From Macrostomum lignano (lineage: Eukaryota): DNA of 64,000 nucleotides. Shown here piece after piece: positions 28,579 to 59,463 of the stretch. The DNA lies in assembly GCA_002269645.1 (NCBI GenBank), contig NIVC01000249.1, positions 248,001-312,000 on the forward strand, given 5' to 3'. The notes under the pieces are model-generated. The model searched no databases. It was not told the origin of the DNA and saw only the letters and a program-made list of their open reading frames with translations. The stretch's first letter is position 1. Each line of letters starts with the position of its first letter. The position numbers and the translations under genes are program-made.

Positions 28579-30138
28579 ATGCACCGCAAGCTTTCGTCTG
28601 CCGCCAAGCTGAAGTTGAAGTCGCCGCCGCCTCTGGGTATCATCAGCAGCAGCACCAGCAGCTGCGTTGGCCGCTCGTTCGGTCGCCGACTCGAGGATCA
28701 GCCGACATCGGCATCAGCGGATTCCGCTGGCTCCGGCAGCGACCCCGCGCTGCCAGCCGTGCTGACTGTCTGCTGCGACTACCTTCGCTGCCACCTGGCC
28801 GCCGAGGGCCTGTTCCGCGTTGAAGGCTCCAAAGTTCGTCAGCGCGATTTGAAGGCCCGCCTGGAGCGCGGCCTGCCAATCAGGGACGGCACGCCTGTCC
28901 AGGACGTCAGCTCGCTGCTCAAGGCCTGGCTGCGCGAGCTGCCCGAACCGCTGCTGCCGCCCCGGCTGGCCTCCGCTCTGGCCGAGGCGTCGCCGCTGGA
29001 GCGCCGCGTCCGCCTGCTGCGCCTGCTGGGCCGGCTGATGCCGCCGAGGCAGCTGGCCGCCCTGCGTCACCTCTGCCAGCTGCTGCAGGCTGTGGCCGCC
29101 GCCTCCGGCGCCAACCGGATGACGGCGGCAAACCTGGCCACCTGCGTCGGCCCCAGCCTGCACGGCGGCGGCGACAGCGGCGGCAGCCCGGACGTGGCCC
29201 GCCTGAACGCCGCCGTGGCCTTGTTAATCGAATTCGCTCAGGACATTGGCGTCGTCTCCTCAGCTGCTGTTGAAGACGACGAGGCCGTGGTGGCGGCGTT
29301 GCAGACTCCGCCGAGCACGCCACAGCAGCCGCAGAAGCTTCTGAGGCGTCGCAGCAGCGGCAGCGGCTCTCTGAGCAGCGCCTTCCGCGCCGTTGGCCGG
29401 GCAGTCAGCCGGCTGGCCAGCCGCTCCCGGTCGCGCAGCCCCCGCCGAGCCGCCGCGGCAGCCGCGGTGGCGGCTGGTAGCAGCGGCAGCCCGGTCTCCG
29501 TGGTCTCCTCGTCCGCGTCCGCCGCCTCTTCGTCAGCTGTATCGTCTGAGAAGCCGCCCTCGCCGCTGGCCGGCTTCCGCTTTGATCCGTCGGCCTGCCA
29601 CACGCCCGTCATCGTCCGCGGCCGGCGGCAGAACAGCGACGCGTCGTTGAAGCGCGGCGTCATTCTGGTCGGCAAGGACGGCGACGCCAACAACGGCGAC
29701 GTTGACGCCGGGCTGTGCTTCGGTCGGCGTCGGCGCCGGCTTCTGCTCGAGAGAATCAGCGCCGGTCGAAAGGCTTCGGTGGATCTTTGCAGCCTCGGCT
29801 CGCCGCTGCCTCCCGCGCCGCACCTGCTTCCGGCTCCGACGTTTCCGCTGCAGACTCCGCCGCCACCGCCGACGCAGCAGCAGCAGCAGCAGCCTCGGAG
29901 TCAGAGTCAGCAGCCGCCTCCATCGCTGCAGCCCGTCAGGACGCCGCTGCGCCGTTTGCAGCGGTCTCCGCGCGACAGTCTGCACGTTCTGCGCCAGGCG
30001 CGGCGTATTGGCGCCAGCGCCGGGCAGCCGCGCCGGCCGGACCGACTGCGCGGAGTTCGCCGGCTCTGGTCGCCGCTGAAGATGTCGCAAAATGCCCGAC
30101 TGTGCCTGCTGAGGGCTGAGGGTCTGCGCCCCGCCTGA
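28579..30138 (+). CDS. Rho GTPase-activating protein, ARHGAP11A-like, single coding exon, 519 aa
   Basis: RhoGAP domain with the arginine finger HLAAEGLFRVEGS, DVSSLLKAWLRELPEPLL and NRMTAANLATCVGPSL. The N-terminal GAP plus low-complexity basic tail resembles ARHGAP11A. Confidence 0.88.
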   Translation: MHRKLSSAAKLKLKSPPPLGIISSSTSSCVGRSFGRRLEDQPTSASADSAGSGSDPALPAVLTVCCDYLRCHLAAEGLFRVEGSKVRQRDLKARLERGLPIRDGTPVQDVSSLLKAWLRELPEPLLPPRLASALAEASPLERRVRLLRLLGRLMPPRQLAALRHLCQLLQAVAAASGANRMTAANLATCVGPSLHGGGDSGGSPDVARLNAAVALLIEFAQDIGVVSSAAVEDDEAVVAALQTPPSTPQQPQKLLRRRSSGSGSLSSAFRAVGRAVSRLASRSRSRSPRRAAAAAAVAAGSSGSPVSVVSSSASAASSSAVSSEKPPSPLAGFRFDPSACHTPVIVRGRRQNSDASLKRGVILVGKDGDANNGDVDAGLCFGRRRRRLLLERISAGRKASVDLCSLGSPLPPAPHLLPAPTFPLQTPPPPPTQQQQQQPRSQSQQPPPSLQPVRTPLRRLQRSPRDSLHVLRQARRIGASAGQPRRPDRLRGVRRLWSPLKMSQNARLCLLRAEGLRPA

Positions 30139-36988: not shown

Positions 36989-39357
36989 ATGACGGACTAC
37001 CTGTACCGGTTCCTGTCGGGCGTGACCGGTTATTACCGGTCCATGAACGCCGCCTACCTCTCCGGCGCCATCGACGTGCTGGTTGTTGAGCAGCCGGACG
37101 GCAGCTTCCGCGGCAGCCCGTTTCACGTGCGCTTCGGCAAGTCGGCGAGCTTCCTGCCCCGCCAGCTGCACGTGGACGTCTACGTGAACGACCGGCCCAC
37201 CGAGCTGCGGATGAAGCTCGGGCCGAACGGCGAGGCCTTCTTTGTCCGCGAGCTGCCGCCAGCAGCGCCGGAGACCCCGCCGCCCCCGGCCGCACTGGTC
37301 ACCTCGCCGATTCAGAGCGACGACGAAGAGGAATACGAGGAGGAAGAGACCCGAAGGCCAGCAGCCGCTGCGGGAGGCGCCGCCGATCCGTCCACGTCCG
37401 CGAAGCTCCAATCGCCGATGCGGATGCTGCGAGCCGCCTCGCTGCCAACTCTGTTGCGGCCAGCTGAGGAGTCGGCCGGCTCAGCCGAGTCCCACCGTCT
37501 GATGATGGAAGGGGCGGCTGCCGCTGCGGCGGGAGCGGCGGTGGCAGCGACAGCGGCGGCTTCTTCGGAGTCTCCGCAGGCCGGGGCGATCGCGGACGCG
37601 GCAGCTACGGCAGCAGCGGCGGTGGCGGCGACAACCGACAGCCTGTCGACGCCCCTGACGGAGCAGCGGCTGATTCAGTGCCTGTCCGACACTGACGTCT
37701 CTGGCTCGGCGGCTGCCGCGGCAGCGGCGGCGGCGGCAGCGGAGGCCCAGCAGGCGGAGGAGCAGGTCGAGTGGCCGTGGGGTCAGTTCCCCCGCCTGAT
37801 GGAGTCGGAGGCTGCGGCTGAGGAGACTCACGCCAAGTCCAACAGCGACGGGGGCAGCGCGGCCGAGGAGGACAGCGACGCTGCTGCTGCTGCGGCTGCC
37901 GCTCTCGCCGCGGCTGTCGCTGCGCCACCGCCTCCGCCGACCACCTCGGAGGCAGCAACTCCGCCGCAGCAGCCGGCGCCCGCTCAGGCGAGCAAGGCCT
38001 CCCAGGAAGGCGGAGTGTACCTGTCCGACCTGGACCCGCAGCTCAGCAGCCTGTACTTGTACGCTCCCGCGCCGAGGGCCGCTTCGCCCGCCTCCGAGGA
38101 CGTCGGCTACAGGTCCTCGGACGACAACGCGCACAACAGCTCGCGGCCGCCGAATCCGCACCGTCAGCAGCTGGAGGGCCTCTCCCTGTCCCTGTGCGGC
38201 CCGCTGAAGCCGGAGGAGCAGCAGCAGCAGGCCTTTGAACTTGAGCAGTGGGCGCGGCACCTCGTCACCTACGAGGAGTTCATCCGGGATCCGGACGGCG
38301 TGCTGAACAGTCCGCAGCTGGTGGTTCAGCTGGCCGGCCAGTACAGCAACTGGCGGGTGGCGGCGCCGCAGATTCTGTCTCTGGTGGCCTTCGGCACGCC
38401 GCTGCCAGACCGGGCCGTCGATCAGCTGCGCAAGAAGCACCAGCAGCCGGCCAAGTCGTCCGCCGCCTCGGCAGCGGCTGGCGGCGCCAACGCCAATTCC
38501 AGCAGCTCGGGGGGCGGCGGCAGCGGCGGTGGCTCCTCCACTGGTCGGCGACGTCGGGCCTGGAACTTCCTGTGGAAGTCGTCTTCATCGACCGCCGCGT
38601 CGACGTCTGGCGCCGCCACAGCGGGCTCGACAACGACGTCGACAGCGTCGGCGGTCTCCGAGAAGTCGGCGGTCTCCGAGAAGTCGGCGGTCTCCGAGAA
38701 GTCGGCGGTCTCCGAGAAGTCGGCGGTCTCCGAGAAGTCGGCGGTCTCCGAGAAGTCGGCGGTCTCCGAGAAGTCGGCGGTCTCCGAGAAGTCGGCGGCA
38801 GAGGCGGAGCCGGCAGCATCGGAGCCGGCAGCACCGAAGGAGGCTCCAAAGCCTCAGCCGCAGCCACAGCCGCAACCGCAGCCGCAGCACTATCACCAGT
38901 ACTCCGACAGCAACGTGTACGTGAAGTCGGTCCGCCTGACCTCCGAGGAGATCGCTAGGCTGGAGCTTCGACCTGGCGTCAATCGAGTTGAGTTCAGCGT
39001 CACCACCGCATTCCAGGGCACCACCAGGTGCTGCGCTTGCATCTACCGGGTGCACCACACCGACAGGCTGGTTGTGTCGGACGTCGACGGCACGATCACC
39101 AGGAGCGACGTGCTCGGCCACCTCCTGCCGATGCTGGGCCGCAGCTGGTCTCACGAGGGTGTCACCCGCCTGTTCCGCTCCATCCGGGACAACGGCTACC
39201 ACCTGCTCTACCTGAGCTCGCGCGGCATCGGCATGTCGGCCGTCACCCGCCAGTTTATCGACTGGGTCAACCAGGAGGACGTGGCCCTGCCCGACGGCCC
39301 CATCATGCTGAACCCGACCTCCTTGGTCACCGCGTTCCGCAAGGAGGTTATCGAAAA
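36989..39357 (+). CDS. LPIN: Lipin (phosphatidate phosphatase) coding exon 1
   Basis: N-LIP SGAIDVLVVEQPDGSFRGSPFHVRFGK; M-LIP LSLSLCG...NWRVAAPQILSLVAF; catalytic HAD motif DVDGT (VVSDVDGTITRSDVLGHLLP). ATG at 36989 with a cag acceptor at 36969-36971; donor AA|GTGAGA at 39358 (phase 2). Confidence 0.95.
38648..38791 (+). repeat. In-frame coding minisatellite, 8 x 18 bp, encoding (SAVSEK)8 in lipin
   Basis: tcggcggtctccgagaag repeated perfectly 8 times. Confidence 0.97.
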
Positions 39358-39394
39358 GTGAGATTTTGGCCTGTTTTGCTGGCAGATAATTGCG

Positions 39395-45117: not shown

Positions 45118-45364
45118 TTGATTTCTGTTGCAGTTTGATGAAGGCTCTGCACTCCTTTATTTGCTTGCGTTATTGCTGCGGTAGTTAGAGGCGGTGAAGA
45201 GAAAGGCTTGGTTCAGCAAACCGCGGGCCTCTAAATAGGCGAAGCTAGAAAGGCTTAGAACAGTTTGTGCGGTAGCCGAACTCTTACACAGGGCTAGTGC
45301 TGAATCACGCTCAATTGCTTACCCTTAGGCCCCCAAGTGGGCGGCAAGAGTTTGACGGCTCAAA

Positions 45365-46367
45365 GAGCGGGCGGCCTCGGAGAGGGGGTCTGAATGTACA
45401 ATCAGGGCGGGGGTTGCCTCCCGATATCTATTTTTAGAACAATTGTGCAAAGCACAACGTGCTGCCCCGGCCCGGGCTTCGCGCACGTGGGGTCTATCAG
45501 CGCACGTCGCGCGCAATGGAAAATTCCTCTGTATTTCCGAAGCCCGAGCTGTTGTCCCTCTATGCGTACATTTGAGATAAGCTTGTGGGATGACCGTGGA
45601 GGCACTTCTCAATGCAACCAACCGCCAGATTCTGCGTGGGTGTGCTGTGGAAGATTCTAGAAGACGGGGGACAGAAAATAAGTTTGCTAACTCTTCCTCT
45701 CTACCACGTACATTTATATCGGGGGAGTATGGACGAAAATTGTGTTGGGGATTTCCTAACATGGAAAGGGGAATAAGGGACGGGCATTTGAGTGCTCAAG
45801 TCCCCTGGAGTGAAGGCGCAGTATTGCCATTCTAGCTCGTGGAATAGATTTGCTGACAAAAGCAAAATTTCTGCCTCAACTACTAACCCTGGTAGAATAT
45901 TTTGCCAAGTAAGCACTTTCATAGCTGTACGTTCAAAGCCAGAGCGCGTGACTGCATTGCTGCTTTTGCGCAAAACATATTTCCTGATACAGCAAAATAA
46001 TTGCTTTCAATTCGACGGATCATTTTCATGGAATGGTTATCTGTCTTTTTTACGCAGTTTTTTAGTTCATTGCTGCAATTACTGTGAATTACGAAGCTAT
46101 TAATTGCTGTAAATTGTAATCGATTAGGCTACATACATGTAATTATAAATTAACCAAAGCGGTGTCACGTAGCTCTTTAGACTCGGTTTCAGCCTCCATT
46201 GTCTTCAACAGTTCCCCTAATTACATGCAGTGGAAGATGAATACTCGCGGGACCAGAAGCAGTCTTGTCAGGCCTTCAAAACACTGGAGTTCTCGCCTAC
46301 TGTCGCACAAATTCTACAGATTAACAACTTCTTTTGTACACTGTAGATGCAAAAATGACCCGACCCG
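45365..46367 (+). repeat. 1003-bp duplicated segment, copy 1 (continues uninterrupted as gacccg|ggcttccggg)
   Basis: Matches 49537-50539 at a constant offset of 4172; ORF translations inside the two copies are identical. Confidence 0.93.
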
Positions 46368-46723: not shown

Positions 46724-47695
46724 TTAAGGGAAGCCAGGGATGCTAACGCTGCCGAGGACCTTAGACAGCTCGTGACGGATCGGCGACTCGATGGCAGCTA
46801 CAATTTGGTGCTGGACGGCGTTCACAACGACGTTGGCCACCGGCGTAAGGATCCAGTCCAGAGGGCCGAGGCCGCTGATGCTGACGGCAACTGGGCTGCC
46901 CTCGCTGATGGCGAAGTGATCCAGTCTCGGGCTCGAGCCGGCCGCGACGTCGGCGCTGACGCGGAAGACGATTCGGATTCGGGAGACCAGGAAAGAGATG
47001 CCGGCGTTGACGCCGATGTCCATGAACTCGGCGCGGGAGTCGAAGCTTCCACGGATGTTGTCAATGCCAATGACGCAGCCGACGACAACGTTGGTGCCCT
47101 GCGCGCTGATGATGCAGTTTCCGGCCCTGTGGATGGTGGACAGACCGTAGGCCAGACCGTTGTACAACCTGGCGCTGCCCCACACGGTGACCAGAAGGAT
47201 CTTCTTAGAGAAGCTGACCCGCTGCTCTGGAATGCTGATCGGGTCCAGGTTGTTGGCGTGGATGAGCGGCCTCAGGCTGGCCATCAGCCTATCGACGTAG
47301 TTGTTGGCGCTTTCATCGACGGGTCGGAGGCGGTTGCTGCTGTAGGGGAGCATGCCGCCCAGGATGTCGCGCAGGTCCACCTTGGCAAGCTCGTTGTTGA
47401 TGACCGTGCGCAGGATGCGGTTGACCTCGGGCAGCAGGTTGCCCTTCAGCCTGTCGTAGATCAGCTTGCCCATGGCGTTCAGCAGGGTGTTGACCACGCT
47501 ACCGAGGTTGCCGCCGCCGACGATGCCCTCCAGGTACATCTGCACCTGAGAGAAGGTCAGGTCGACTTGCAAGTTGTTCAGTTGAACACGGGTGAAGTCC
47601 TCGATGGACACGGAAGCCACGAAGCGAATGCTCAGGTCGTTGATTTGGATGGCAGCCGGACCGCTGCCGTACAGCGGGAAGATCAGAATCTTGCC
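46724..47695 (-). CDS. JHBP/takeout + Der p 7 (Grp7 allergen)-like secreted lipid-binding protein, exon 2
   Basis: Acceptor ...ccaccag|GGC AAG ATT at 47696/47695 is in frame with ORF 46724..47620. It encodes the rest of the JHBP domain (GKILIFPLYGSG) and a second domain, ANNYVDRLM...LDPISIP...GLSTIHRAG. Confidence 0.8.
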   Translation of the reverse strand, partial: GKILIFPLYGSGPAAIQINDLSIRFVASVSIEDFTRVQLNNLQVDLTFSQVQMYLEGIVGGGNLGSVVNTLLNAMGKLIYDRLKGNLLPEVNRILRTVINNELAKVDLRDILGGMLPYSSNRLRPVDESANNYVDRLMASLRPLIHANNLDPISIPEQRVSFSKKILLVTVWGSARLYNGLAYGLSTIHRAGNCIISAQGTNVVVGCVIGIDNIRGSFDSRAEFMDIGVNAGISFLVSRIRIVFRVSADVAAGSSPRLDHFAISEGSPVAVSISGLGPLDWILTPVANVVVNAVQHQIVAAIESPIRHELSKVLGSVSIPGFP

Positions 47696-48035
47696 CTGGT
47701 GGTGGGGTTGATGAGTACATGTTTAGTGGCTCGGATGCTTCACGTCCGTCTGTATACAGTAAAGAGGCTTTCGATAGATTATGGAATATAATCCTTCTGG
47801 TTTAAACTTTTTCTTCTGGTTTATAATTATTCTAGTGCCCCTAAGTACTAAGGACTCAAGAAGTCTAGTCATTGGAAGGCGCTTCAGAACGGCCCTGCTG
47901 TGAGCAAGGAATTTGATTTCCTCAGAAGCAGGCCGACTTGCAGGAGAAACTCTACAGTCTATAAGCCTACAGTTGAGGGTAAATATTGATTCTCACACGC
48001 TTACAACTTTCTCTGTAAGCTTAAAAACAACTCAC

Positions 48036-48419
48036 GTCCAGATTGTAATCGGCTCGGGCCGCCACCTGCGGGAAGAACAGGTCGAGCTCGATGCTCATGC
48101 TGCCAGTGTGGCCCTTGGCATCGCGCACGACAAAGGAGGACAGGCCGTTCATGACGAAGTTGCGCATGTTGAGCTTGACGTCGGCGACGCCCTCTTTAAT
48201 CCGGGGGATGTCGATGACCGGCAGAGACAGCGGCTCAAGCGGCGGGATCATCAGCTCGGGGATTCCGTGCGGCATCGCCTGGCGCAGGTTCTCCAGAGTG
48301 GCCTTGATGTAGATGCTGATGGTGTCCAGGTCCGGGTCGGACAGAGGCGTCTCGGCAGTGCGGCAGCTGACCGCTGCCAGCAGGCAGCAGGCGACGGCGA
48401 GGCTCAGTAGTTTTAGCAT
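48036..48419 (-). CDS. JHBP/takeout + Der p 7-like protein, exon 1 (signal peptide + JHBP N-half); spliced protein 451 aa
   Basis: ATG at 48419 directly follows a cag acceptor. Signal peptide MLKLLSLAVACCLLAAVSC; takeout/JHBP motif GIPELMIPPLEPL; donor GAC|GTGAG at 48035 (phase 0). Confidence 0.85.
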
Positions 48420-49249
48420 CTGTGCGGGGACGAGAAATGCACGATGGGCGTCACAGAATCGCATTAAAGATTTTACACTATAGGCTGAAAGGTTGATTCG
48501 AACCCCAATTCTCTGTAGATCGAGATTCAACTTTACCAAGCGAAGCAGAGAAGCTCGGGTTACATTTGCAGGATTGATACTACACATTTAAGAGGTGAAC
48601 ACAGGTAGACTTACCTTCGTCAATATAGGTTTAGAACTAATAATTAACTTTTTACTGAAGTCTCGCCTACACTACTGAGACCTATAGAAGCAGAGCGTTG
48701 GTCCGACTCGCGCCTTTTTGTAAGGCGAGAGATGAGACCGCATGGGTCCACGGTGAGGCGCCCGGCACCTCGGACCACCGCGCCCTCTGCCTGGCACGCG
48801 CTGGCCGGCTGTCTTGGGTGAGATACGAATGGGATTGACATGCTACAGGCACTGCAGTGTGCAGTGGGAACCGCGGCAGAAGCGACTGAAAAGAGACAGA
48901 GGCAGTTGGACAGGTTGAGAACCCCCTGTGTGCCGTAGTCAGCTGGCGGACCGCAGCGCAGCGCGGTGTCAAGCGTCCAAAGTGGCCAGATCTTTTTCTG
49001 CTTTAAATGATTCAAGATAAAAGTCTAGAGTATTAAAATCTCATGATTGCTATGTTTACTAAGATTGGAGTTCTAAAAATGCTTATCCTACAATGAGAAT
49101 TTTTCTGCTGATGCTATTGTCTATACTCGTATTTGCCTTTGTGTTACTGTAATTGACGTGTGTTTACTTATTTATTTATTACATCAAGACCAACTGACTA
49201 GCCATCCCAGTCATGCGATCAGACCCTCATGAACTTTAACCCTAACCAA

Positions 49250-49530
49250 TAACCCTCCCACAGTCAGGCCACCAGACCCCTATGACCCCAAACCCAGGCC
49301 ACCAGACCCCTATGAGCCCCACAGTCAGGCCACCAGACCCCTATGAGCCCCACAGTCAGGCCACCAGACCCCTATGACCCCAAACCCAGGCCACCAGACC
49401 CCTATGAGCCCCACAGTCAGGCCACCAGACCCCTATGAGCCCCACAGTCAGGCCACCAGACCCCTATGACCCCAAACCCAGGCCACCAGACCCCTATGAG
49501 CCCCACAGTCAGGCCACCAGACCCCTAAGA
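49250..49530. repeat. ~31-bp minisatellite (ccagacccctatga[gccccacagt|ccccaaacc]caggcca)
   Basis: Direct tandem units of two alternating variants. Confidence 0.9.
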
Positions 49531-49536
49531 CCCAAT

Positions 49537-50539
49537 GAGCGGGCGGCCTCGGAGAGGGGGTCTGAATGTACAATCAGGGCGGGGGTTGCCTCCCGATATC
49601 TATTTTTAGAACAATTGTGCAAAGCACAACGTGCTGCCCCGGCCCGGGCTTCGCGCACGTGGGGTCTATCAGCGCACGTCGCGCGCAATGGAAAATTCCT
49701 CTGTATTTCCGAAGCCCGAGCTGTTGTCCCTCTATGCGTACATTTGAGATAAGCTTGTGGGATGACCGTGGAGGCACTTCTCAATGCAACCAACCGCCAG
49801 ATTCTGCGTGGGTGTGCTGTGGAAGATTCTAGAAGACGGGGGACAGAAAATAAGTTTGCTAACTCTTCCTCTCTACCACGTACATTTATATCGGGGGAGT
49901 ATGGACGAAAATTGTGTTGGGGATTTCCTAACATGGAAAGGGGAATAAGGGACGGGCATTTGAGTGCTCAAGTCCCCTGGAGTGAAGGCGCAGTATTGCC
50001 ATTCTAGCTCGTGGAATAGATTTGCTGACAAAAGCAAAATTTCTGCCTCAACTACTAACCCTGGTAGAATATTTTGCCAAGTAAGCACTTTCATAGCTGT
50101 ACGTTCAAAGCCAGAGCGCGTGACTGCATTGCTGCTTTTGCGCAAAACATATTTCCTGATACAGCAAAATAATTGCTTTCAATTCGACGGATCATTTTCA
50201 TGGAATGGTTATCTGTCTTTTTTACGCAGTTTTTTAGTTCATTGCTGCAATTACTGTGAATTACGAAGCTATTAATTGCTGTAAATTGTAATCGATTAGG
50301 CTACATACATGTAATTATAAATTAACCAAAGCGGTGTCACGTAGCTCTTTAGACTCGGTTTCAGCCTCCATTGTCTTCAACAGTTCCCCTAATTACATGC
50401 AGTGGAAGATGAATACTCGCGGGACCAGAAGCAGTCTTGTCAGGCCTTCAAAACACTGGAGTTCTCGCCTACTGTCGCACAAATTCTACAGATTAACAAC
50501 TTCTTTTGTACACTGTAGATGCAAAAATGACCCGACCCG
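49537..50539 (+). repeat. 1003-bp duplicated segment, copy 2, interrupted at 50539 by the Polinton-like element
   Basis: Identity to 45365-46367 stops abruptly at gacccgacccg|agtagtagg. Confidence 0.93.
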
Positions 50540-50837
50540 AGTAGTAGGTAAAAGTACGCTTCTAGACCCAGAGGCACCTATCAAACAGGTGATTTAAAGG
50601 GCTAGAGGGGGGACACGAGGGGGGAAACCAAAAAACACAATTAAACACCCACCGAAACCCACCGACACCAACCGACACCAACCAACACTAACCAACACAA
50701 TTAAACACCCCCAACACTACTAATAAACAAAAACACCCCCAACACTTCCAAAAATCCCCTCGAGTCCCCCCATTCAAGCCCTTCAAATCACCTGTTTGAT
50801 AGGTGCCGGATCTAGAAGCGTACTTTTACCTACTACT
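50540..50837. repeat. Terminal inverted-repeat hairpin: ~83-bp arms (50540-50622 / 50756-50837) around a 133-bp A/C-rich spacer
   Basis: agtagtaggtaaaagtacgcttctaga...ggcacctatcaaacaggtgattt.aagggct...ggggggac.cgagggg is present in both orientations with few mismatches and small indels. Confidence 0.92.
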
Positions 50838-50904
50838 ACATTTAACCCCAGGCCGCGCCGCAGGCGCGAAGGGTCTTTTTCTGTTACTATAAATTGACAA
50901 AAGG

Positions 50905-51728: not shown

Positions 51729-54700
51729 AGATAATAGGTGTTTATTATGGTGTTTACTAATTCATAAATATCACAAACATGTAAAATCACATGTAAATAA
51801 AATATATAATTATAGATATTATGAGGATGAAATAATAATGAAAGACATATCATTCCCAGTATCGATAGACGATATATATATAAGATAGAAAAAATGAATG
51901 GAATAAATATTAATGTATTTTCAATTGAACAGCCAGTAAACATTATTGAAGCTGATAAAGAATGGTATAAAAAAGATGTTATCTTGTTAAACCAGCAACT
52001 GATATAACAGCACCAGATCAAATTGATTTATTGTATGTACAGCGCGGAAATGAAACACACTATGTTTACATAAAGGACATTAGTTCTTTTTAAGAGAAAA
52101 TGGAAATAGAATGCCATTGTGTAGAAACTGTTTCAAATTTAAAAAGGATGAAACAGCTCTTAAAAACCATCAAAGTTTTTGTTTAGATCACAAATTTACT
52201 AATGTTGTCATGCCCAATGAAAAAGAACAAATCCTAAAGTTCCAACAACACTATATGGCAATTAAAAAACCAATTGTAATATATGCTGATTTTGAAGCAT
52301 CAAACATCCCCTTAAAAGAATCACAGACAGTATCTTATGGTGAATGTACAAAAAAATAGCACAACAGTTTCCAAATAGTTATTGCATTTATGTACATTCT
52401 GTAGCCGAACATATATTTAAATCGAGGATGTTCACTTATCATGGCAGTGACAGCGCAAATCATATGGCTCGTAGACTAGTAAATATATTTGAAGTTATAC
52501 AATATCAATATGAGGCACTATCAAAAAATATTATTATGACAGATAGGGATATATCTAATTATAAGAATGCAACGAATTGTTTTCTATGCAAAATTAAGTT
52601 AAGTAAGAATAATAAAATAAGAGAACATTGTCATCTAACAGGAAATTATCGCGGGGCAGCATGTAAATCATGTAACGCAAAAGAAGGAAAAGGATGTAAG
52701 GAAATACCAGTATTTTTTCATAACGGATCTGGTTATGGTTTTCATTTCCTCGTTCGAGAAGTGCTACAATTAGGTAGGGATGAATATGAAGTAAATATAT
52801 TACCTAAAACATCAGAAAACTATATATCAATAACATATGGTAAGAAACTCTCATCTAGTTTTTCTAGATTCATTGAGATTCTTATCAACTTCTTTAGCAA
52901 ATGTTGTTTCTTCATTAGTTCCAAAACCTATGGATATAGAAATACTAAAGAAGAACTTTCCAATTTTATTGAATAAATTCAAAGAAGAAAAACTATCTGA
53001 AGAAGAACTAAGTATATTAACTCGCAAGGGCGTTTATCTATATGAATATGTAACATCTGAAAAGGTATTTAATGATACCGAACTACCACCCATAGAAAAA
53101 TTTTATTCAACATTATCACAATCTTATATATCTGAAGCAGATTATGAACATGCTCAAAAAGTATGGAAATATTTTAATTGTAAAACATTTAAAGATTATC
53201 ATAACCTATATCTTAAAGCAGATGTTCTCCTGTTAGCTGATGCGTTTGAAAACTTTAGAAATCATACATATGAGAATTTAAAAATTGATCCAGCCTATTG
53301 TTTTAGTGCACCAGGATTAACATGGGCGTGTGGCTTGAAATATACAGATGTTAAGATTGATTTATTAACTGATCATGATATGCTGGTAATGATAGAGCGC
53401 GGAATTCGAAGTGGATTCTCAGGGGTTTTAGGAGATAGATATACTAAAGTAAATAATAAATATCTACCAAATTATAATAAAAAACAAAAATCATCATATG
53501 TATTATATCTAGATGCAAACAATTTATATGGTGTTTGTATGAAACAAAAATTACCAATTGCTGATTTCCGATGGGAAGATGATCCCAATTATTATAAAAA
53601 CATTCCCAAAGGAAGGGGATGTATTGTAGAAGTAGATTTAGAATATACTCGGCAAGCAAAAGCAAGAACGTATAAATACCCATTAGCTCCAGAGCATTGC
53701 TCAGTTAAGGAAGACGATTTATCACAAACGCAAAAAGATTATCTCAAAGCCAATAATACAAAACACCTAGCGACAAAAAAGTTAATACTAGATTTATTTG
53801 ATAAGAAAAACTATGTAGTGCATTATAAGCTTCTACAATTTTATGAAAAGCAGGGACTAAAAGTTACAAAAGTACATTGAACCATCTCCTTTATTGAGGA
53901 ATATTGGTTAGCTAAATATATCGACTCTAATTCAAATCAGAGACAGATGTCAAAAACAAATTTTGAGAAAGATTACTGAAAATTAATGAACAATGCTTTT
54001 TATGAAAAAAACTGTTGAAAATATTAGAGATAGAACACAATTCCATTTAGAAAAGGATATTGAAAAAGCAAAGAAATATTTTTCAAAACCAAACTTTAAA
54101 GACTTTATAAAATTTGATGATGAATTTATGGGAATACATACGCGCAATAAAACAACAAAATCTCTTAAACCAATATTTATTGGAATGGTTGTGTTAGATT
54201 ATGCTAAGTTAGTAATGTATGAATATTATTATGATGTTATTAATAAAACTTGGCCAGATAACTATCCAATATATGCAGACACCGATAGCTTGGTATTTAA
54301 GGTTGAAACACCAGCCGTCTATAAAGACATGGAAACAATTCAGGATACCTTAGATACACCCGACTATCCGGATAACCATCCCCTAAAATCAAATAAAAAT
54401 AAGAAAGTTGTACTTAAAATGAAAGATGAATTAAATAGTAAAATCATAACCGAGTTTATAGCAATAAGATCAAAATGTTATGCATTTAAGGTTTTAGGAC
54501 AGGAGGGAGAGGTAAAAAAATAAAAGGGGTATCAAGAGCAGCAGTTAAAAATATAACCTTTGATGATTATAAAAATGTATTATTAGATTACCTTAATACA
54601 ATTGAAAATTATCATGCTCCACAATATCGATTAAATTCAAATAATCATCAGATGTTTGTTATTGAGACGGATAAAAAAACCTTAAACCCATTTGATGATA

Positions 54701-54970
54701 AAAGGTATTTAGGTAATCAAATTAAAACATATCCATATGGTTTAAAAGAAGAAATAAAAAACATGAAAATAGATAAAAAACAAAATGAGGATATAATGCA
54801 TCGGTTTGCGCGAGCCCGCGAGGGCTAACCGCTGTTAGTGCAAGGGGGGGCTGTTTGGGTGCTGGCGGTCTGGTGGGGTGGTGGGTGCGTTGGTGCGTGC
54901 GCGTGCCTATTTAGGCCGCCACCTTTGTGGCTGCGCGGGGTTGCTCGCGGTTGAATTTTTTTGCTGAATC

Positions 54971-56062
54971 ATGGCAGATAGCCTTGTACTGCCCGCAACT
55001 AACAAAGCGCTACGAGAAGCCCTTAGTGAGCGCGGCCTGCCTACTAATGGCAATAAGCAAGAGCTAACAAGTCGTCTAAAACTCAGCATTGCCAAGGAGC
55101 TTGAGCGGCAGGCGTTGGAGCAGGACAGAGGCTCATCTCGTCGTGCTCAAGATGACAAGACATCACCGACGAATGCGGGCGCACCCGAGCTAAGTCTGGC
55201 TCCACCTGAGGACGAGATGCTACCGGCGGTGGGCGCCTCGGCCGAGGGTCGGGCGGCGACGGGAGGCGGTCTCGAGGATCAGCTGCGAGAGACTGAACTG
55301 CGCATTCGGCTGCTGGACCTGAAAAAAAGAGAGGCTCAGCTCGAAGCCGAGCTCGCTGAAGCGCGTCACAGTGGCACGGCGGCTGCGAGAGAACGTGATC
55401 AGACTCCCGGTGAGTGGCATGATTTGGTTGGCGAGTGTATACTCGGGCAGGCTGGGGCTGCAACTTCGCATGCTCAGGCGCCGGCGGTGTACAGAGTCGT
55501 TGATTTTATCAGTGAGCGTAAGCGGAGACAAGGAAGCCAGTCTGTTGTGGGAGCGGCAAAGCCAGAGAGGTTGAGACACGTCAGTCCCGAGTCACTGTCG
55601 TTTGGCGATTTCATCTCCGGTAGCTGTAACTTACTGGTGCAAATGCTGCGTGATGGCAAACTGCTGCGCATTGTTGATGGCAGAATCGATTCATCCGAGT
55701 TGATCGATCATCTCCGACATAACGCTAGAATTGGTGACCTGCTAGATTTAGGCTTCGATCGCACTAAAGTCATGAGATATGATGACGAATGTCGGCTTCT
55801 CCAGCATGATGGAACGCGGTGGAGCGCTGTTAGCGCAGACCTGGGTCTGGTGGCAACACACTTGATGGCACCAACAAAAATGATAAACGCAACAGCGCCT
55901 AAAAAGCGAACGCAGCCACCTGTCTGTTTCGACTTCAACAGTCTTAGCGGCTGCAACAGAACTCACTGCCGCTTCGCCCATCAGTGCCGCAGGTGCTCAC
56001 AGCCGCACTCTGAAGCCCGAGCCCACGCTGATGGGGACCCGGGCCAATTTTCAAAAAACTAG
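54971..56062 (+). CDS. Gag-like ORF1 (363 aa) with N-terminal SAP-like motif, coiled coil and C-terminal CCCH/CCH zinc knuckle
   Basis: LPATNKALREALSERGLPTNGNKQELTSRL (SAP consensus); LRETELRIRLLDLKKREAQLEAELAE (coiled coil); CFDFNSLSGCNRTHCRFAHQCRRCSQPH. Confidence 0.9.
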   Translation: MADSLVLPATNKALREALSERGLPTNGNKQELTSRLKLSIAKELERQALEQDRGSSRRAQDDKTSPTNAGAPELSLAPPEDEMLPAVGASAEGRAATGGGLEDQLRETELRIRLLDLKKREAQLEAELAEARHSGTAAARERDQTPGEWHDLVGECILGQAGAATSHAQAPAVYRVVDFISERKRRQGSQSVVGAAKPERLRHVSPESLSFGDFISGSCNLLVQMLRDGKLLRIVDGRIDSSELIDHLRHNARIGDLLDLGFDRTKVMRYDDECRLLQHDGTRWSAVSADLGLVATHLMAPTKMINATAPKKRTQPPVCFDFNSLSGCNRTHCRFAHQCRRCSQPHSEARAHADGDPGQFSKN

Positions 56063-56149
56063 CGTGCGAGGTGGGGGCACAGGACTCAATGTCTGCCGTC
56101 GGGTCGCCCTCCTGTGCCCCCACGGGGGAGCTCCCCCTATGTGACCCGA
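56053..56149 (+). promoter_or_regulatory. Predicted -1 programmed ribosomal frameshift signal: A_AAA_AAC heptamer + three-stem pseudoknot
   Basis: Heptamer 56053-56059 is in Gag phase. Stem 1 is 56071-56084/56110-56123 (14 perfect bp); stem 2 is 56099-56107/56141-56149; stem 3 is 56124-56128/56133-56137. The -1 frame is the RT ORF. Confidence 0.75.
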
Positions 56150-57984
56150 GTTCAACTGAGTTGTCGAGCGACCTTGTGTTTGCGGTTTGGCGGGAAGAGC
56201 TGGCTGGGACCGAGATGCCGGAGGACCGTGTCAGGTTCGTGCTCGATGGTGTGAAGAATGGCTTTCGAATTACTAATAAAGTGATGGATTGTAAGAACCA
56301 CACTGAGATGGCAAATCACAGATCAGCTACCATTCACCAGCAAGCTGTTGAGGCCCAGGTGCGCCAGGAGCTCAAGCAGGACCGCTACAGGCGCTGCCAG
56401 GCAGGCAACCGGCCGCTCATCGTTAGTGCCCTTGGTGCGATCCCTAAGGCGGATTCGTCTTCCATCCGCCTTATTCACGACTGCAGCCTGCCAACTGGCG
56501 CCTCTGTGAATGATTTCTTTGAGTCGAAACGGAAGTTGCGTTTTACTTCGGCCAGCAACTTTGCCTCGAAGCTGTACAGCGGCGCGTACATGTGCAAAGT
56601 GGATCTGTCGCAAGCATATCGTTCATGTGGTGTGCACCCTGATGACCACCGGGTCACAGGCATGAAGATTCAGCTCCAAGGCGAGGGCCAGCCAGTGTAC
56701 CTGTACGACACGCGGCTCCCGTTTGGTGCTTCGGCTTCCGTCTTCTGCTTTTACGAGCTGAGCCAAGCTGTGCGTTTTATGATGTTGAAGCATGGTTTCT
56801 ACGCTATGGAGGCCTACATGGATGACTTCGCCTTTTGTGGAGATCTGGAGTCCTGCTGGAAGTTCTACAACCATCTCATCGATCTGCTCGAGCGGCTAGG
56901 CTTCACCGTTAACCGTAGCAAGTGTGTTCCGCCGACAACGCGGATGACCTTTCTGGGCATTTTATTTGATAGCGTGGCAGGCCAGATGTCTCTTCCTGCC
57001 GAAAAAGTCCAAGACTTGTTGCATGTTTTATCCCTCTGCTCTTCGAAGAAAAGGCTGTCAAAGTCGTGTTTGCAGAAGTTGATCGGCAAGTTAAACTGGG
57101 CGTCGCAAGTTGTTCGGCACGGGAGAGTTTTCCTCCGACCTCTTATCGACATTGTTAACAAGCTGCATCGGCCTCATGACAGGGTTCTTGTTAGTCCCTC
57201 CGTGGTGCACCACCTCTCCTGGTGGCGGTTGGCTTTGCAGCATCGCATCGGTGTTGGCCTGTGGACTTCGCCGAGGGCTTGTGTTGCCATAGAGACTGAC
57301 TCGTCGTCTTCAGGCGCCGCGGCGGTGCTCCGTGACGGTGATGGGATTCGTGATTGGTGCTTTATTGACTGGCAGATCGACGCAAATGGTGTTTTTCAGA
57401 ATTACTGCATCAATTACAAGGAGGCTGTGGTTATATTGCTGGCTGTTTTGAGATGGGGCCAATCCTTGGCTGGTTGTCGGCTTGCTGTGTACTGCGACAA
57501 TGAGACGGCGTGTTGGATTCTAAGGCGAGGTGTCTCCAAGGACTCGCGTCTGATGTGGTTGCTGCAGTCTGTGGCGTTGCTCTGTCTGCGTTTTGACGTT
57601 GAATTTGAGGTCTTTCACGTTCCTGGTGCTTATCAGCTGTTTGCTGATGCAGGGTCCCGCCTGCACTCGCGTCATGAGTTGCTTAATTTTATTTTCCGTG
57701 TTTACGGGTCTGTACCAGTTTGCCCTGTGGAGTTTTCGGATCACGCGTTTTCTGTTTTTGCCTCCCGTTTTTTATTTTCACAGGCCGCCTCCCTGCAACG
57801 CCGACCCTCGGCGCCGCCGCCTCCAGCCTCCTCGCCGCAGCATACGCACCGCAGTCACGCAGGGCGATCTCATCGGCCGTCCGGTCCTGGCACAGCTTCT
57901 GCAACGAGAACGGGACCAACCCGGCTCGATCCGACCGGTCGGTGCTACTCAACTACCTGGCTCACCTGGTCGAATGCCGCCTGA
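56071..57984 (+). CDS. Reverse transcriptase / RNase H ORF2 (frame open from 56032)
   Basis: IRLIHDCS, CKVDLSQAYR, RLPFGASASV, YMDDF, FLGILFD; RNase H ETDSS / NYKEA / YCDN / HVPG..QLFADAGSR. Confidence 0.95.
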   Translation: MGAQDSMSAVGSPSCAPTGELPLCDPSSTELSSDLVFAVWREELAGTEMPEDRVRFVLDGVKNGFRITNKVMDCKNHTEMANHRSATIHQQAVEAQVRQELKQDRYRRCQAGNRPLIVSALGAIPKADSSSIRLIHDCSLPTGASVNDFFESKRKLRFTSASNFASKLYSGAYMCKVDLSQAYRSCGVHPDDHRVTGMKIQLQGEGQPVYLYDTRLPFGASASVFCFYELSQAVRFMMLKHGFYAMEAYMDDFAFCGDLESCWKFYNHLIDLLERLGFTVNRSKCVPPTTRMTFLGILFDSVAGQMSLPAEKVQDLLHVLSLCSSKKRLSKSCLQKLIGKLNWASQVVRHGRVFLRPLIDIVNKLHRPHDRVLVSPSVVHHLSWWRLALQHRIGVGLWTSPRACVAIETDSSSSGAAAVLRDGDGIRDWCFIDWQIDANGVFQNYCINYKEAVVILLAVLRWGQSLAGCRLAVYCDNETACWILRRGVSKDSRLMWLLQSVALLCLRFDVEFEVFHVPGAYQLFADAGSRLHSRHELLNFIFRVYGSVPVCPVEFSDHAFSVFASRFLFSQAASLQRRPSAPPPPASSPQHTHRSHAGRSHRPSGPGTASATRTGPTRLDPTGRCYSTTWLTWSNAA

Positions 57985-58763
57985 GATCGTTCAACAGTCT
58001 GCGTGTCCATGTCAGTGCACTGTCCAGCTGGTTCAAAGCCTGTGGTGCTGAGGACCTAACAAAACACCACCTGGTCTCACTGCTCGTTCGCGGCGCTAAA
58101 CGGAGGATGGGCCAGCGACCAAGACGGAAGCTGCCGATCTCGCCTGCGATGCTGCTGTCTGTGAAAAACCGGCTTAACTCGAGCAGTTCGCTTGACAGAG
58201 TCTGCTGGCTTGTGACGCTTATTGCTTGGTGGGGGATGTTTCGGCGCTCCAGTCTCCTGCCCAGTCAGCAGTCCGCTTCACCGATTTCCGTCTCAGCCTT
58301 TCAACGCCACCCGAAGGGGGTTGTGCTCTCTGTCAGTTATGGCAAGACGAATCAGTTCGGCGCGAAGCTGCACCGGGTGTTGCTTCCAAGGCTAAAAGAA
58401 GGACATCCGCTTTGCCCAGTGGCTGCGCTAGAGGGTCACCTCCGTGTCAGCAAGCTTGGCTGCAGGCAGCCTGTGTTCTCCTACCAGTTGGCGAGCGGAT
58501 CCTCTGTTGTCCTGTCTGCCTCAAGATTCGACAGGTTCCTCAAGCGCTGCCTAGCAACTGCTGAGCAGGACGCTCGTTCTTTCTCAGCGCACAGCCTGCG
58601 CAGAGGTGGTGCCACCTGGGCCTACCGTCTCGGACTATCTGTTCAGGAGGTGAAGTGCATCGGTGACTGGCGAAGTGATGCTGTGACTGCCTACCTTCCA
58701 TCTGCTGATTCTGTGCGGGCTGGTTCGCGTTTTGCTGGTGCTTTTAACGAGAGTTGCCTTTGA
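57720..58763 (+). CDS. Tyrosine recombinase ORF3 (no ATG before the conserved N-terminal domain; probable entry via splice acceptor at 57783)
   Basis: Catalytic set: WWGMFRRS (R), KTNQFG (K), HSLRRGGAT (HxxR), GDWRSDAVTAY (W...Y). N-terminal SAM-like region AYAPQSRRAISSAVRSWHSFC. Confidence 0.95.
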   Translation: MPCGVFGSRVFCFCLPFFIFTGRLPATPTLGAAASSLLAAAYAPQSRRAISSAVRSWHSFCNENGTNPARSDRSVLLNYLAHLVECRLRSFNSLRVHVSALSSWFKACGAEDLTKHHLVSLLVRGAKRRMGQRPRRKLPISPAMLLSVKNRLNSSSSLDRVCWLVTLIAWWGMFRRSSLLPSQQSASPISVSAFQRHPKGVVLSVSYGKTNQFGAKLHRVLLPRLKEGHPLCPVAALEGHLRVSKLGCRQPVFSYQLASGSSVVLSASRFDRFLKRCLATAEQDARSFSAHSLRRGGATWAYRLGLSVQEVKCIGDWRSDAVTAYLPSADSVRAGSRFAGAFNESCL

Positions 58764-59463
58764 GTAACTTTTGCTTGTGTTCAAAGTTTTATTTCCGTTC
58801 TTATCCCCAGCCTTATTTCCGCCGTTTCGTAAATTCTCTCCTTCGTTCATTCATTTGTTTGTTTGGCCTTGGGGTTGCATCCTCTGGCTTTTCGCTGCCT
58901 CGCCATCGCCACACTCGGTTTGTCTTGTCTTTGCCTCCCCTTCACTAATGCATCGGTTTGCGCGAGCCCGCGAGGGCTAACCGCTGTTAGTGCAAGGGGG
59001 GGCTGTTTGGGTGCTGGCGGTCTGGTGGGGTGGTGGGTGCGTTGGTGCGTGCGCGTGCCTATTTAGGCCGCCACCTTTGTGGCTGCGCGGGGTTGCTCGC
59101 GGTTGAATTTTTTTTTCCTCGCTAATTATAATTTTTAATCAGTTTAATTCGTTTTAACAAGTCATGAAATAAATACGATCGTCTGAGGGTTGCATCCTCT
59201 GGCTTTTCGCTGCCTCGCCATCGCCACACTCGGTTTGTCTTGTCTTTGCCTCCCCTTCACTAATAAGTAGATATAAAGAATACAAAGAGTCAATAAATAT
59301 TTATTATTATAATTATGATTGTGAATACGAATGTGAATGTGAATATAATAAATTTCTAGAATATGAAAAAGATATAGATAATTATTATGCAACATTTCCA
59401 AAAGAACTTAAAAAAATAAACAAGGAACAAGTCTTGGATAACTGGAAGAGATTAACAGAACAA

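Follow-up and report, generated by a model that had tools for sequence, protein, structure and literature searches.

The 298-bp inverted unit at one end of a Polinton in Macrostomum lignano is the heritable, normal end of a Polinton family, and its polarity is fixed. We observed directly the architecture of this end (an outer arm, a loop and an inner arm that repeats the tip in inverted orientation), the fixed polarity, the co-evolution of the two arms, a conserved AC after the inner arm, and a second family built to the same plan. We analyzed one such end in a window of 64,000 nucleotides, the whole stretch of DNA under study (G000:C249:248001-312000 of a 764-Mb assembly), and its copies elsewhere in the genome. 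The features of the end are listed in Table 1.

Table 1. Features of the left end of the Polinton, in window positions.
Feature	Position	Strand	Remarks
Left TSD copy, GACCCG, 6 bp	50534..50539		right copy after the far end, G000:C249:328205
Left TIR, complete, 358 bp	50540..50897	+	98% identical to the right TIR, which lies outside the window
Outer arm	50540..50622	+	83 nt; starts (AGT)2, a motif as in the consulted text of PMC8097293; integrated tip
Fixed internal loop, arm positions 27-36	50566..50575	+	the two arms differ from each other at these positions in almost every copy
Loop (spacer)	50623..50755	+	133 nt; A/C-rich, G-poor; predicted unstructured on either strand
Inner arm	50756..50837	-	82 nt; tip sequence inverted
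AC	50838..50839	+	conserved; takes the inner copy 2 nt beyond the integrated tip; putative match to the free genome end
Mini-hairpin GCGCC-GCA-GGCGC	50854..50868	+	GC-rich, GCA triloop
First ORF, 144 aa	50905..51339	+	no Pfam family; occurs in sister copies
pPolB gene	52344..54523	+	broken into three ORF pieces; endonuclease VII domain in the first
Tyrosine-recombinase retroelement insertion	54797..59100	+	RT, RNase H, YR and a repeated end; right border approximate

A preliminary description of the unit (50540-50837) had reported a tip copied in inverted orientation around an A/C spacer with direct repeats of its own, no TSD directly around the unit, and genes beginning 67 bp past it. Each of these features was borne out. 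The arms are 89% identical overall, and the 27 nt nearest the tip contain no mismatch. The spacer is 88% A+C and 3.8% G, and aacacaattaaacaccc is repeated inside it. The TSD brackets the whole 29.7-kb element instead of the unit. The far end of the element lies beyond the window (G000:C249:328204) and has a matching outer-loop-inner unit, so the hairpin is present at both ends, as the description had proposed to check. The predicted fold of 50540-50880 reaches -87.6 kcal/mol on the plus strand and -93.3 kcal/mol on the minus strand (z about -16.6), far better than shuffled sequence for either strand (0 of 100 shuffles equally good). By fold prediction, then, the element has a terminal fold-back stem of the parvovirus type. 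The loop, the inner arm and the downstream DNA are all present in short-read contigs from three studies, no single contig spanning the whole stretch; a record that is possibly a source of the assembly (X1) shows 0 differences over 50604-50882. An assembly error or a one-off rearrangement is ruled out by these contigs together with the family-wide copies.

We identified the element as a Polinton from the genes of its sister copies, which are 17-20 kb long and encode a pPolB with an EndoVII domain, an rve integrase, an A32 ATPase and a double-jelly-roll MCP. The pPolB is a 1320-aa ORF in a sister copy, with polymerase motifs and 35% identity over 84% to a named adintovirus PolB; a PDB sequence search with it returned no match. 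Its N-terminal region can be aligned with the adintovirus protein beginning at residue 105; GSG, Cys and His motifs are retained, and we read them as candidate TP and vOTU motifs, following 10.1101/2024.03.18.585575. The integrase was above the cut-off in one sister copy (PF00665, E=4.8e-8), the packaging ATPase matched PF04665 Pox_A32 (E=6e-7), and the predicted MCP structure (pLDDT 58) had the mavirus MCP as its top Foldseek match (E=3.9e-13). A 157-aa ORF without a Pfam match is a candidate for an adenain-like protease; its Atlas neighbors score 0.97, and 13-62% of their members carry Peptidase_C5. The candidate minor-capsid ORFs had no Pfam match. No HUH Rep/NS1 nickase family was found by Pfam among 49 proteins, several ORFs being unnamed, and no primase-helicase was found at the loci of this family. 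The EndoVII domain is disfavored as a dedicated cruciform cutter, given that PF02945 occurs in most of the PolB relatives listed (at least 120). We note that the copy in the window carries a second inserted retroelement, of Ty3/gypsy type (L032:1982-6093). A ~320-aa ORF ahead of pPolB (L035:2691-3647, L040:1193-2164) has a weak match to Adeno_PX (adenovirus core protein X), and possibly encodes a DNA-condensing protein. An Eco47II-like nuclease ORF below the Pfam cut-off adjoins the integrase in one copy (L036:7804-8199), and other ORFs take its slot in other copies of the family.

The unit was present in all 30 of the top loci (40 of 226 candidates were scored). Genome-wide pattern counts, in which type was assigned by arm positions 27-36 and duplicated contigs are included, found 196 arms of the outer type and 197 of the inner type, against 0 matches for the control; restriction of the inner arm to a single copy, which the preliminary description had named as fatal, is not what we see. 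A 6-bp TSD lies directly outside the outer arm in 21 of 24 scored end pairs (26 tried, 2 unscored), TIRs are about 250-380 bp long, and several end pairs are 17-20 kb apart. For comparisons among ends we used 78 distinct ends, having dropped two solos, their duplicate and one deleted end. In all 78, the A/C-rich strand of the loop is the strand with the tip at its 5' end. The description had asked whether spacers occur in flip and flop orientations; they have a single polarity, with no flop end among the 58 non-solo ends examined.

Arms are 80 bp and loops mostly 80-145 nt. Family-wide, the loops consist of 47% A, 34% C, 17% T and 2% G, with a mean fold of about -0.4 kcal/mol. Their pairwise identity is 66%: sequence is replaced between subfamilies and composition is kept, although some motifs are common to them, such as TAAACAC in 59 of 68 units. 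The mini-hairpin lies 17-86 nt further inside and is exact in 70 of 78 ends; its loop variants, GAA (L082/L098) and GTA, are only of the GNA type. One locus (L067) has a compensatory stem change, GCCCC-GTA-GGGGC, and at another (L011, right end of G000:C1319) the GCA triloop is inverted to TGC.

The inner copy runs two nucleotides past the integrated tip. GT precedes (AC follows) the inner arm in 194 of 197 cases, and the outer arm in 7 of 196. In those seven, GT is host flank in four, belongs to converted inner arms in two and to the extended tip of L092 in one; none is a flop end. The three inner-type arms without AC are ordinary inner arms inside full TIRs, and a diverged subfamily has AT in place of AC. 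We compared 28 distinct post-arm sequences: the first base is A in 27, the second is C in 26, and the third varies (A19, T6, C3), so conservation ends after two bases. Retrovirus-type integrases remove 2 nt from each 3' end. Because of this trimming, and because the inner copy extends 2 nt past the tip, we infer that the free linear genome ends 5'-GT-AGTAGT and that the inner arm reproduces this end as it is before trimming. Modest backing comes from two metagenome contigs of one distant pPolB/A32/MCP virus, which both stop at 5'-GTAGTAGT, one per genome end (L123:1-8 and the far end, L124); in this virus no integrase was detected and no nested arm was found. Another metagenome contig stops at AGTAGTAGG, which counts against such a tip. 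The TIR of the L123/L124 virus has a perfect 24-bp inverted repeat with an 11-nt C/A loop, ~130 nt inside.

The two arms of an end have evolved together. Over the first 26 nt, outer and inner arms differ by 2.0 mismatches within an end and by 5.9 between ends (42 haplotype pairs from the 78 ends), and none of 10,000 permutations was as extreme, a result that gives no probability over independent events, as the haplotypes are related. A single duplication left alone would predict equal distances and is therefore not the explanation. By segment, within-end and between-end distances were 0.04/0.18, 0.75/0.76, 0.26/0.40 and 0.14/0.17; the signal is present at positions 37-64 too (0.26 versus 0.40). 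At positions 27-36, outer and inner arms of one end differ by 0.75, whereas outer arms differ from each other by 0.23 and inner arms by 0.27. Three inner arms have been converted to the outer type (L091, L093, L102). In L092 (G000:C2245:9530-9580), one case at the level of the assembly, the tip is extended by 19 nt that are complementary to the DNA behind the inner arm and end at the mini-hairpin stem. Exchange between the arms is only occasional, since 195 outer/inner mismatches are retained at both ends across 21 TSD-matched elements, which rules out that the tip must be copied anew from its inner counterpart in every cycle. End-coupled columns number only 7, all in one mosaic element (C926); we dropped hairpin repair as their explanation because its two ends come from different subfamilies.

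The second Polinton family (L206/L218, G000:C2696:30607-48420; L222-L251) has an integrase 66% identical to that of the first, and encodes pPolB together with a D5-type primase-helicase (Prim-Pol/PriCT-2/D5), which the loci of the first family do not have. The end sequences of the two families have only the AGT motif in common. Even so, each end of the second family has a nested-tip unit, of 99-100 bp, in which a 25-bp stem encloses a GC-rich loop of 49-50 nt with a small branch. The stem is perfect in 23 of 28 ends, AC is present in 26 of 28, and polarity is again single (0 of 28 flop). The core common to both families is thus a 25-27-bp terminal stem plus AC. One end (G000:C2696:30607-30705) has a private substitution in both arms, with 2 matches genome-wide and none at the other end of the element; this is a single case, seen in the assembly only. 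An Eco47II-like nuclease ORF adjoins the integrase in this family.

We favor a reading in which the inner arm duplicates the free end in its untrimmed form and would supply a displaced strand with both a local origin, formed by folding back, and a template for repair, protein priming being kept; we judge its chance of being right to be about even. The integrase would trim 2 nt from a genome ending 5'-GT-AGTAGT. During replication pPolB would displace one strand, the 3' end of which would pair flush with the inner arm ~300 nt away in a local panhandle, the partner being the inner arm at the same end and not the far end 17-20 kb off. Terminal-protein-primed initiation on the folded duplex would then start the second strand and keep the polarity, and the same pairing would occasionally template tip repair or conversion. 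A displaced adenovirus strand likewise regains its duplex origin by pairing its end with an inverted copy, in a panhandle whose partner is the far end; adenovirus tips also have trinucleotide repeats, and the difference here is that the partner is nearby, at the same end.

This fold-back reading draws on the family-wide arms, their co-evolution, the 2-nt offset, the sister family and the traces of pairing (the private substitution, the conversions and L092), as well as on the metagenome contigs that stop at GTAGTAGT and the TP/vOTU-like motifs of pPolB. The G-free loop, the GNA triloops, the conversions and L092 suggest that the arms pair in single strands. The evidence comes from integrated copies, from which folded and free molecules would be deduced. 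Several observations count against the reading. The GCA triloop lies on the 5'-end strand and not on the would-be priming strand. Perfect runs from the tip have a median length of 20 nt and, in the largest subfamily, a mode of 9 nt; the strands show a weak wobble bias (46 versus 31 distinct mismatches, 107 transversions). Jump-back on the AGT repeats alone could restore 2 nt, and to our knowledge most Polintons have been described without such an inner arm.

A sizable minority chance belongs to the possibility that second-strand synthesis routinely starts from the folded 3' end as primer, the ends being hairpin-closed and nicked by the integrase at ACTACT^AC. This nick would be the same cut as 3' processing, and the hairpin would stay on the parental strand, so no flip/flop would arise; host gap repair would refill the TIR after strand transfer, and the inner CT^AC could be a provirus nick site for copy-out. 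Such priming needs no enzymes beyond those of the element to account for the fixed polarity and the conserved AC. Polymerases should naturally accept a 3'-OH that lies flush on a template overhang, and the 19-nt extension of L092 resembles a fold-back product. In the consulted text of the sources, hairpin priming has been proposed for protist virophage and PLV palindromes (10.64898/2026.07.28.741278), and the MVM left end is resolved asymmetrically (PMC1185569). Against routine priming, no full junction is integrated among the 196 outer arms, TP/vOTU-like motifs and AGT repeats are retained, and integrase nicking at the hairpin base is an assumption of ours. Moreover, the palindromes are reported mainly in non-pPolB elements in the text consulted (10.64898/2026.07.28.741278), whereas no primase-helicase was found in our first family. 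From sequence alone, a local panhandle and routine self-priming look the same. We consider it rather unlikely, though consequential, that this lineage exits and re-enters chromosomes as hairpin-ended DNA, with the integrase, nicking CT^AC, as both hairpin resolvase and copy-out nickase. If true, the lineage would have a hairpin cycle that involves neither Rep nor flip/flop, and this would explain how an integrated Polinton escapes. We know of no excision by retrovirus-type integrases.

It is improbable that the arms are inverted protein sites in double-stranded DNA, serving as origin, packaging signal or promoter and homogenized by conversion, with folding incidental. Genes begin 67 bp inside the unit, the loops have TAAACAC (59 of 68 units) and other motifs in common, and conversion events are seen, all of which fit such sites. 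They leave unexplained why G is avoided in the loop, why triloop variants are restricted to GNA, with a compensatory stem in L067, and why the copy stops precisely 2 nt beyond the tip in both families.

We think still less of an ancient template-switch scar, neutral and homogenized by recurrent quasi-palindrome correction. Hairpin micro-events do occur (the inverted triloop of L011), and accidental annealing is named as an alternative in the consulted text of 10.64898/2026.07.28.741278. Against neutrality, inner and outer arms are found at nearly every end (197 and 196) although inverted repeats are deletion-prone, the same plan and AC recur in a family with unrelated ends, and the asymmetry at positions 27-36 is fixed. 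A one-off scar of replication, as the preliminary description had suggested, is refuted by ~200 ends, the co-evolving arms and the second family.

The same description had suggested a mini-Polinton that excises as a 298-bp unit, comparable to the solo LTDRs of KolobokP, and this is very unlikely. Two distinct solo remnants with 6-bp TSDs speak for it: L065 (335 bp, TSD GAAATT), in which a G/T loop separates an outer/inner hybrid arm from an outer arm, and L078/L097 (202 bp, TSD GACTAT), which has an internal deletion. Both have outer-type tips at either end and resemble products of deletion; recombination between the left outer arm and the right inner arm, which are direct repeats, would be expected to yield the hybrid arm of L065. 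We found no free outer+inner unit with its own TSD. None of the 197 inner-type arms abuts host DNA, as 194 run into AC and the other three lie inside full TIRs. Least likely of all, and barely credible, is an AAV-type rolling hairpin resolved by a Rep nickase, which the terminal stem with its inner tip copy and the small branch in the sister family's loop would suit, but which the lack of flop ends refutes for integrated copies unless a single orientation integrates, and for which no HUH/Rep family was found among the 49 proteins (several ORFs unnamed). Hence, of the parvovirus-like hairpin telomere first suggested, a fold-back role is plausible, and parvovirus-type hairpin transfer in its simple form finds no support, given that neither flop ends nor, among the 49 proteins, a Rep/HUH family was found.

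We compared the ends with known systems, among them the AAV ITR, a parvovirus telomere, alongside the MVM left end. The latter is likewise a fold-back end with a fixed asymmetric bulge, and its dimer junction is resolved asymmetrically (PMC1185569, text consulted in part). Parvovirus telomeres need an NS1/Rep nickase, not found here, and ours is an integrating dsDNA element with pPolB. Animal Polintons/Mavericks of the adintovirus-like kind, as described in the consulted text of PMC8097293 and 10.1101/2023.08.22.554363, share (AGT)2//(ACT)2 ends, a 6-bp TSD and TIRs of a few hundred bp, as well as a length of 17-20 kb, pPolB, rve integrase, A32 ATPase and double-jelly-roll MCP; here, in contrast, every TIR has a nested inverted tip copy plus 2 nt. 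The word "hairpin" is absent from the searched text of both papers, and "palindrome" from that of the nematode paper, where alone it was checked. Jump-back initiation is cited in PMC8097293. KolobokP composite-like transposons have terminal units with their own inverted ends, and solo units occur; according to the consulted text of PMC9587614, these units lie in direct orientation, have TIRs of at most 18 bp and undergo excision as non-autonomous elements, whereas ours are inverted, with long arms and solos that look like deletion remnants.

A close parallel is found in the 52-nt terminal palindromes of Halocafeteria virophages and PLV subtype 4, which lie within the TIR beside the TSD, and for which a hairpin-priming model has been proposed (10.64898/2026.07.28.741278, text consulted in part). 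Terminal palindromes in protist virophages/PLVs are thus already reported, and hairpin priming is already proposed for them. Those palindromes were screened with a gap of at most 10 nt and belong mostly to non-pPolB elements of a protist; here an animal Polinton with pPolB has 80-bp arms and a loop mostly of 80-145 nt. For the palindromes, the text consulted reports neither polarity nor arm co-evolution nor a 2-nt offset; it also dates an excision-and-annealing model for Polintons to 2006. In the portions of the literature consulted, we found no account of nested tip copies in animal Polintons or of the 2-nt offset; Kapitonov and Jurka 2006, Repbase or preprint supplements might contain one. 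Nothing on Polinton end structure was added by the consulted parts of PMC4028283, PMC6431247, PMC9863843 and PMC11296320. New here are the arm counts, the +2 rule, the second family and the pairing traces.

Searches of IMG/VR for the hairpin architecture, by patterns and protein queries, returned 0 loci. Two gap patterns gave 119 loci (39, and 80 of at least 120), mostly simple repeats, with arm identity of at most 23/30. No nested tip copy was found in the 80 of 188 metagenome PolB loci inspected, few of which reach an end. The ends predict that the free tip exceeds the integrated one by 2 nt, that the cut falls at CT^AC, that the 25-27-bp stem is the unit recognized and that polarity is fixed. 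Two families with different replication genes keep one plan, and it may therefore be a general, overlooked feature of Polinton TIRs.

On the host side of the window, near-identical repeats at 45325-45762 and 49509-49934, 4.2 kb apart, contain the same minus-strand ORF, and between them lie pieces of a JHBP/Grp7-allergen-like gene (46724-48587). Host RhoGAP and lipin ORFs (28579-30138 and 36989-39361) are found amid many minisatellite arrays.
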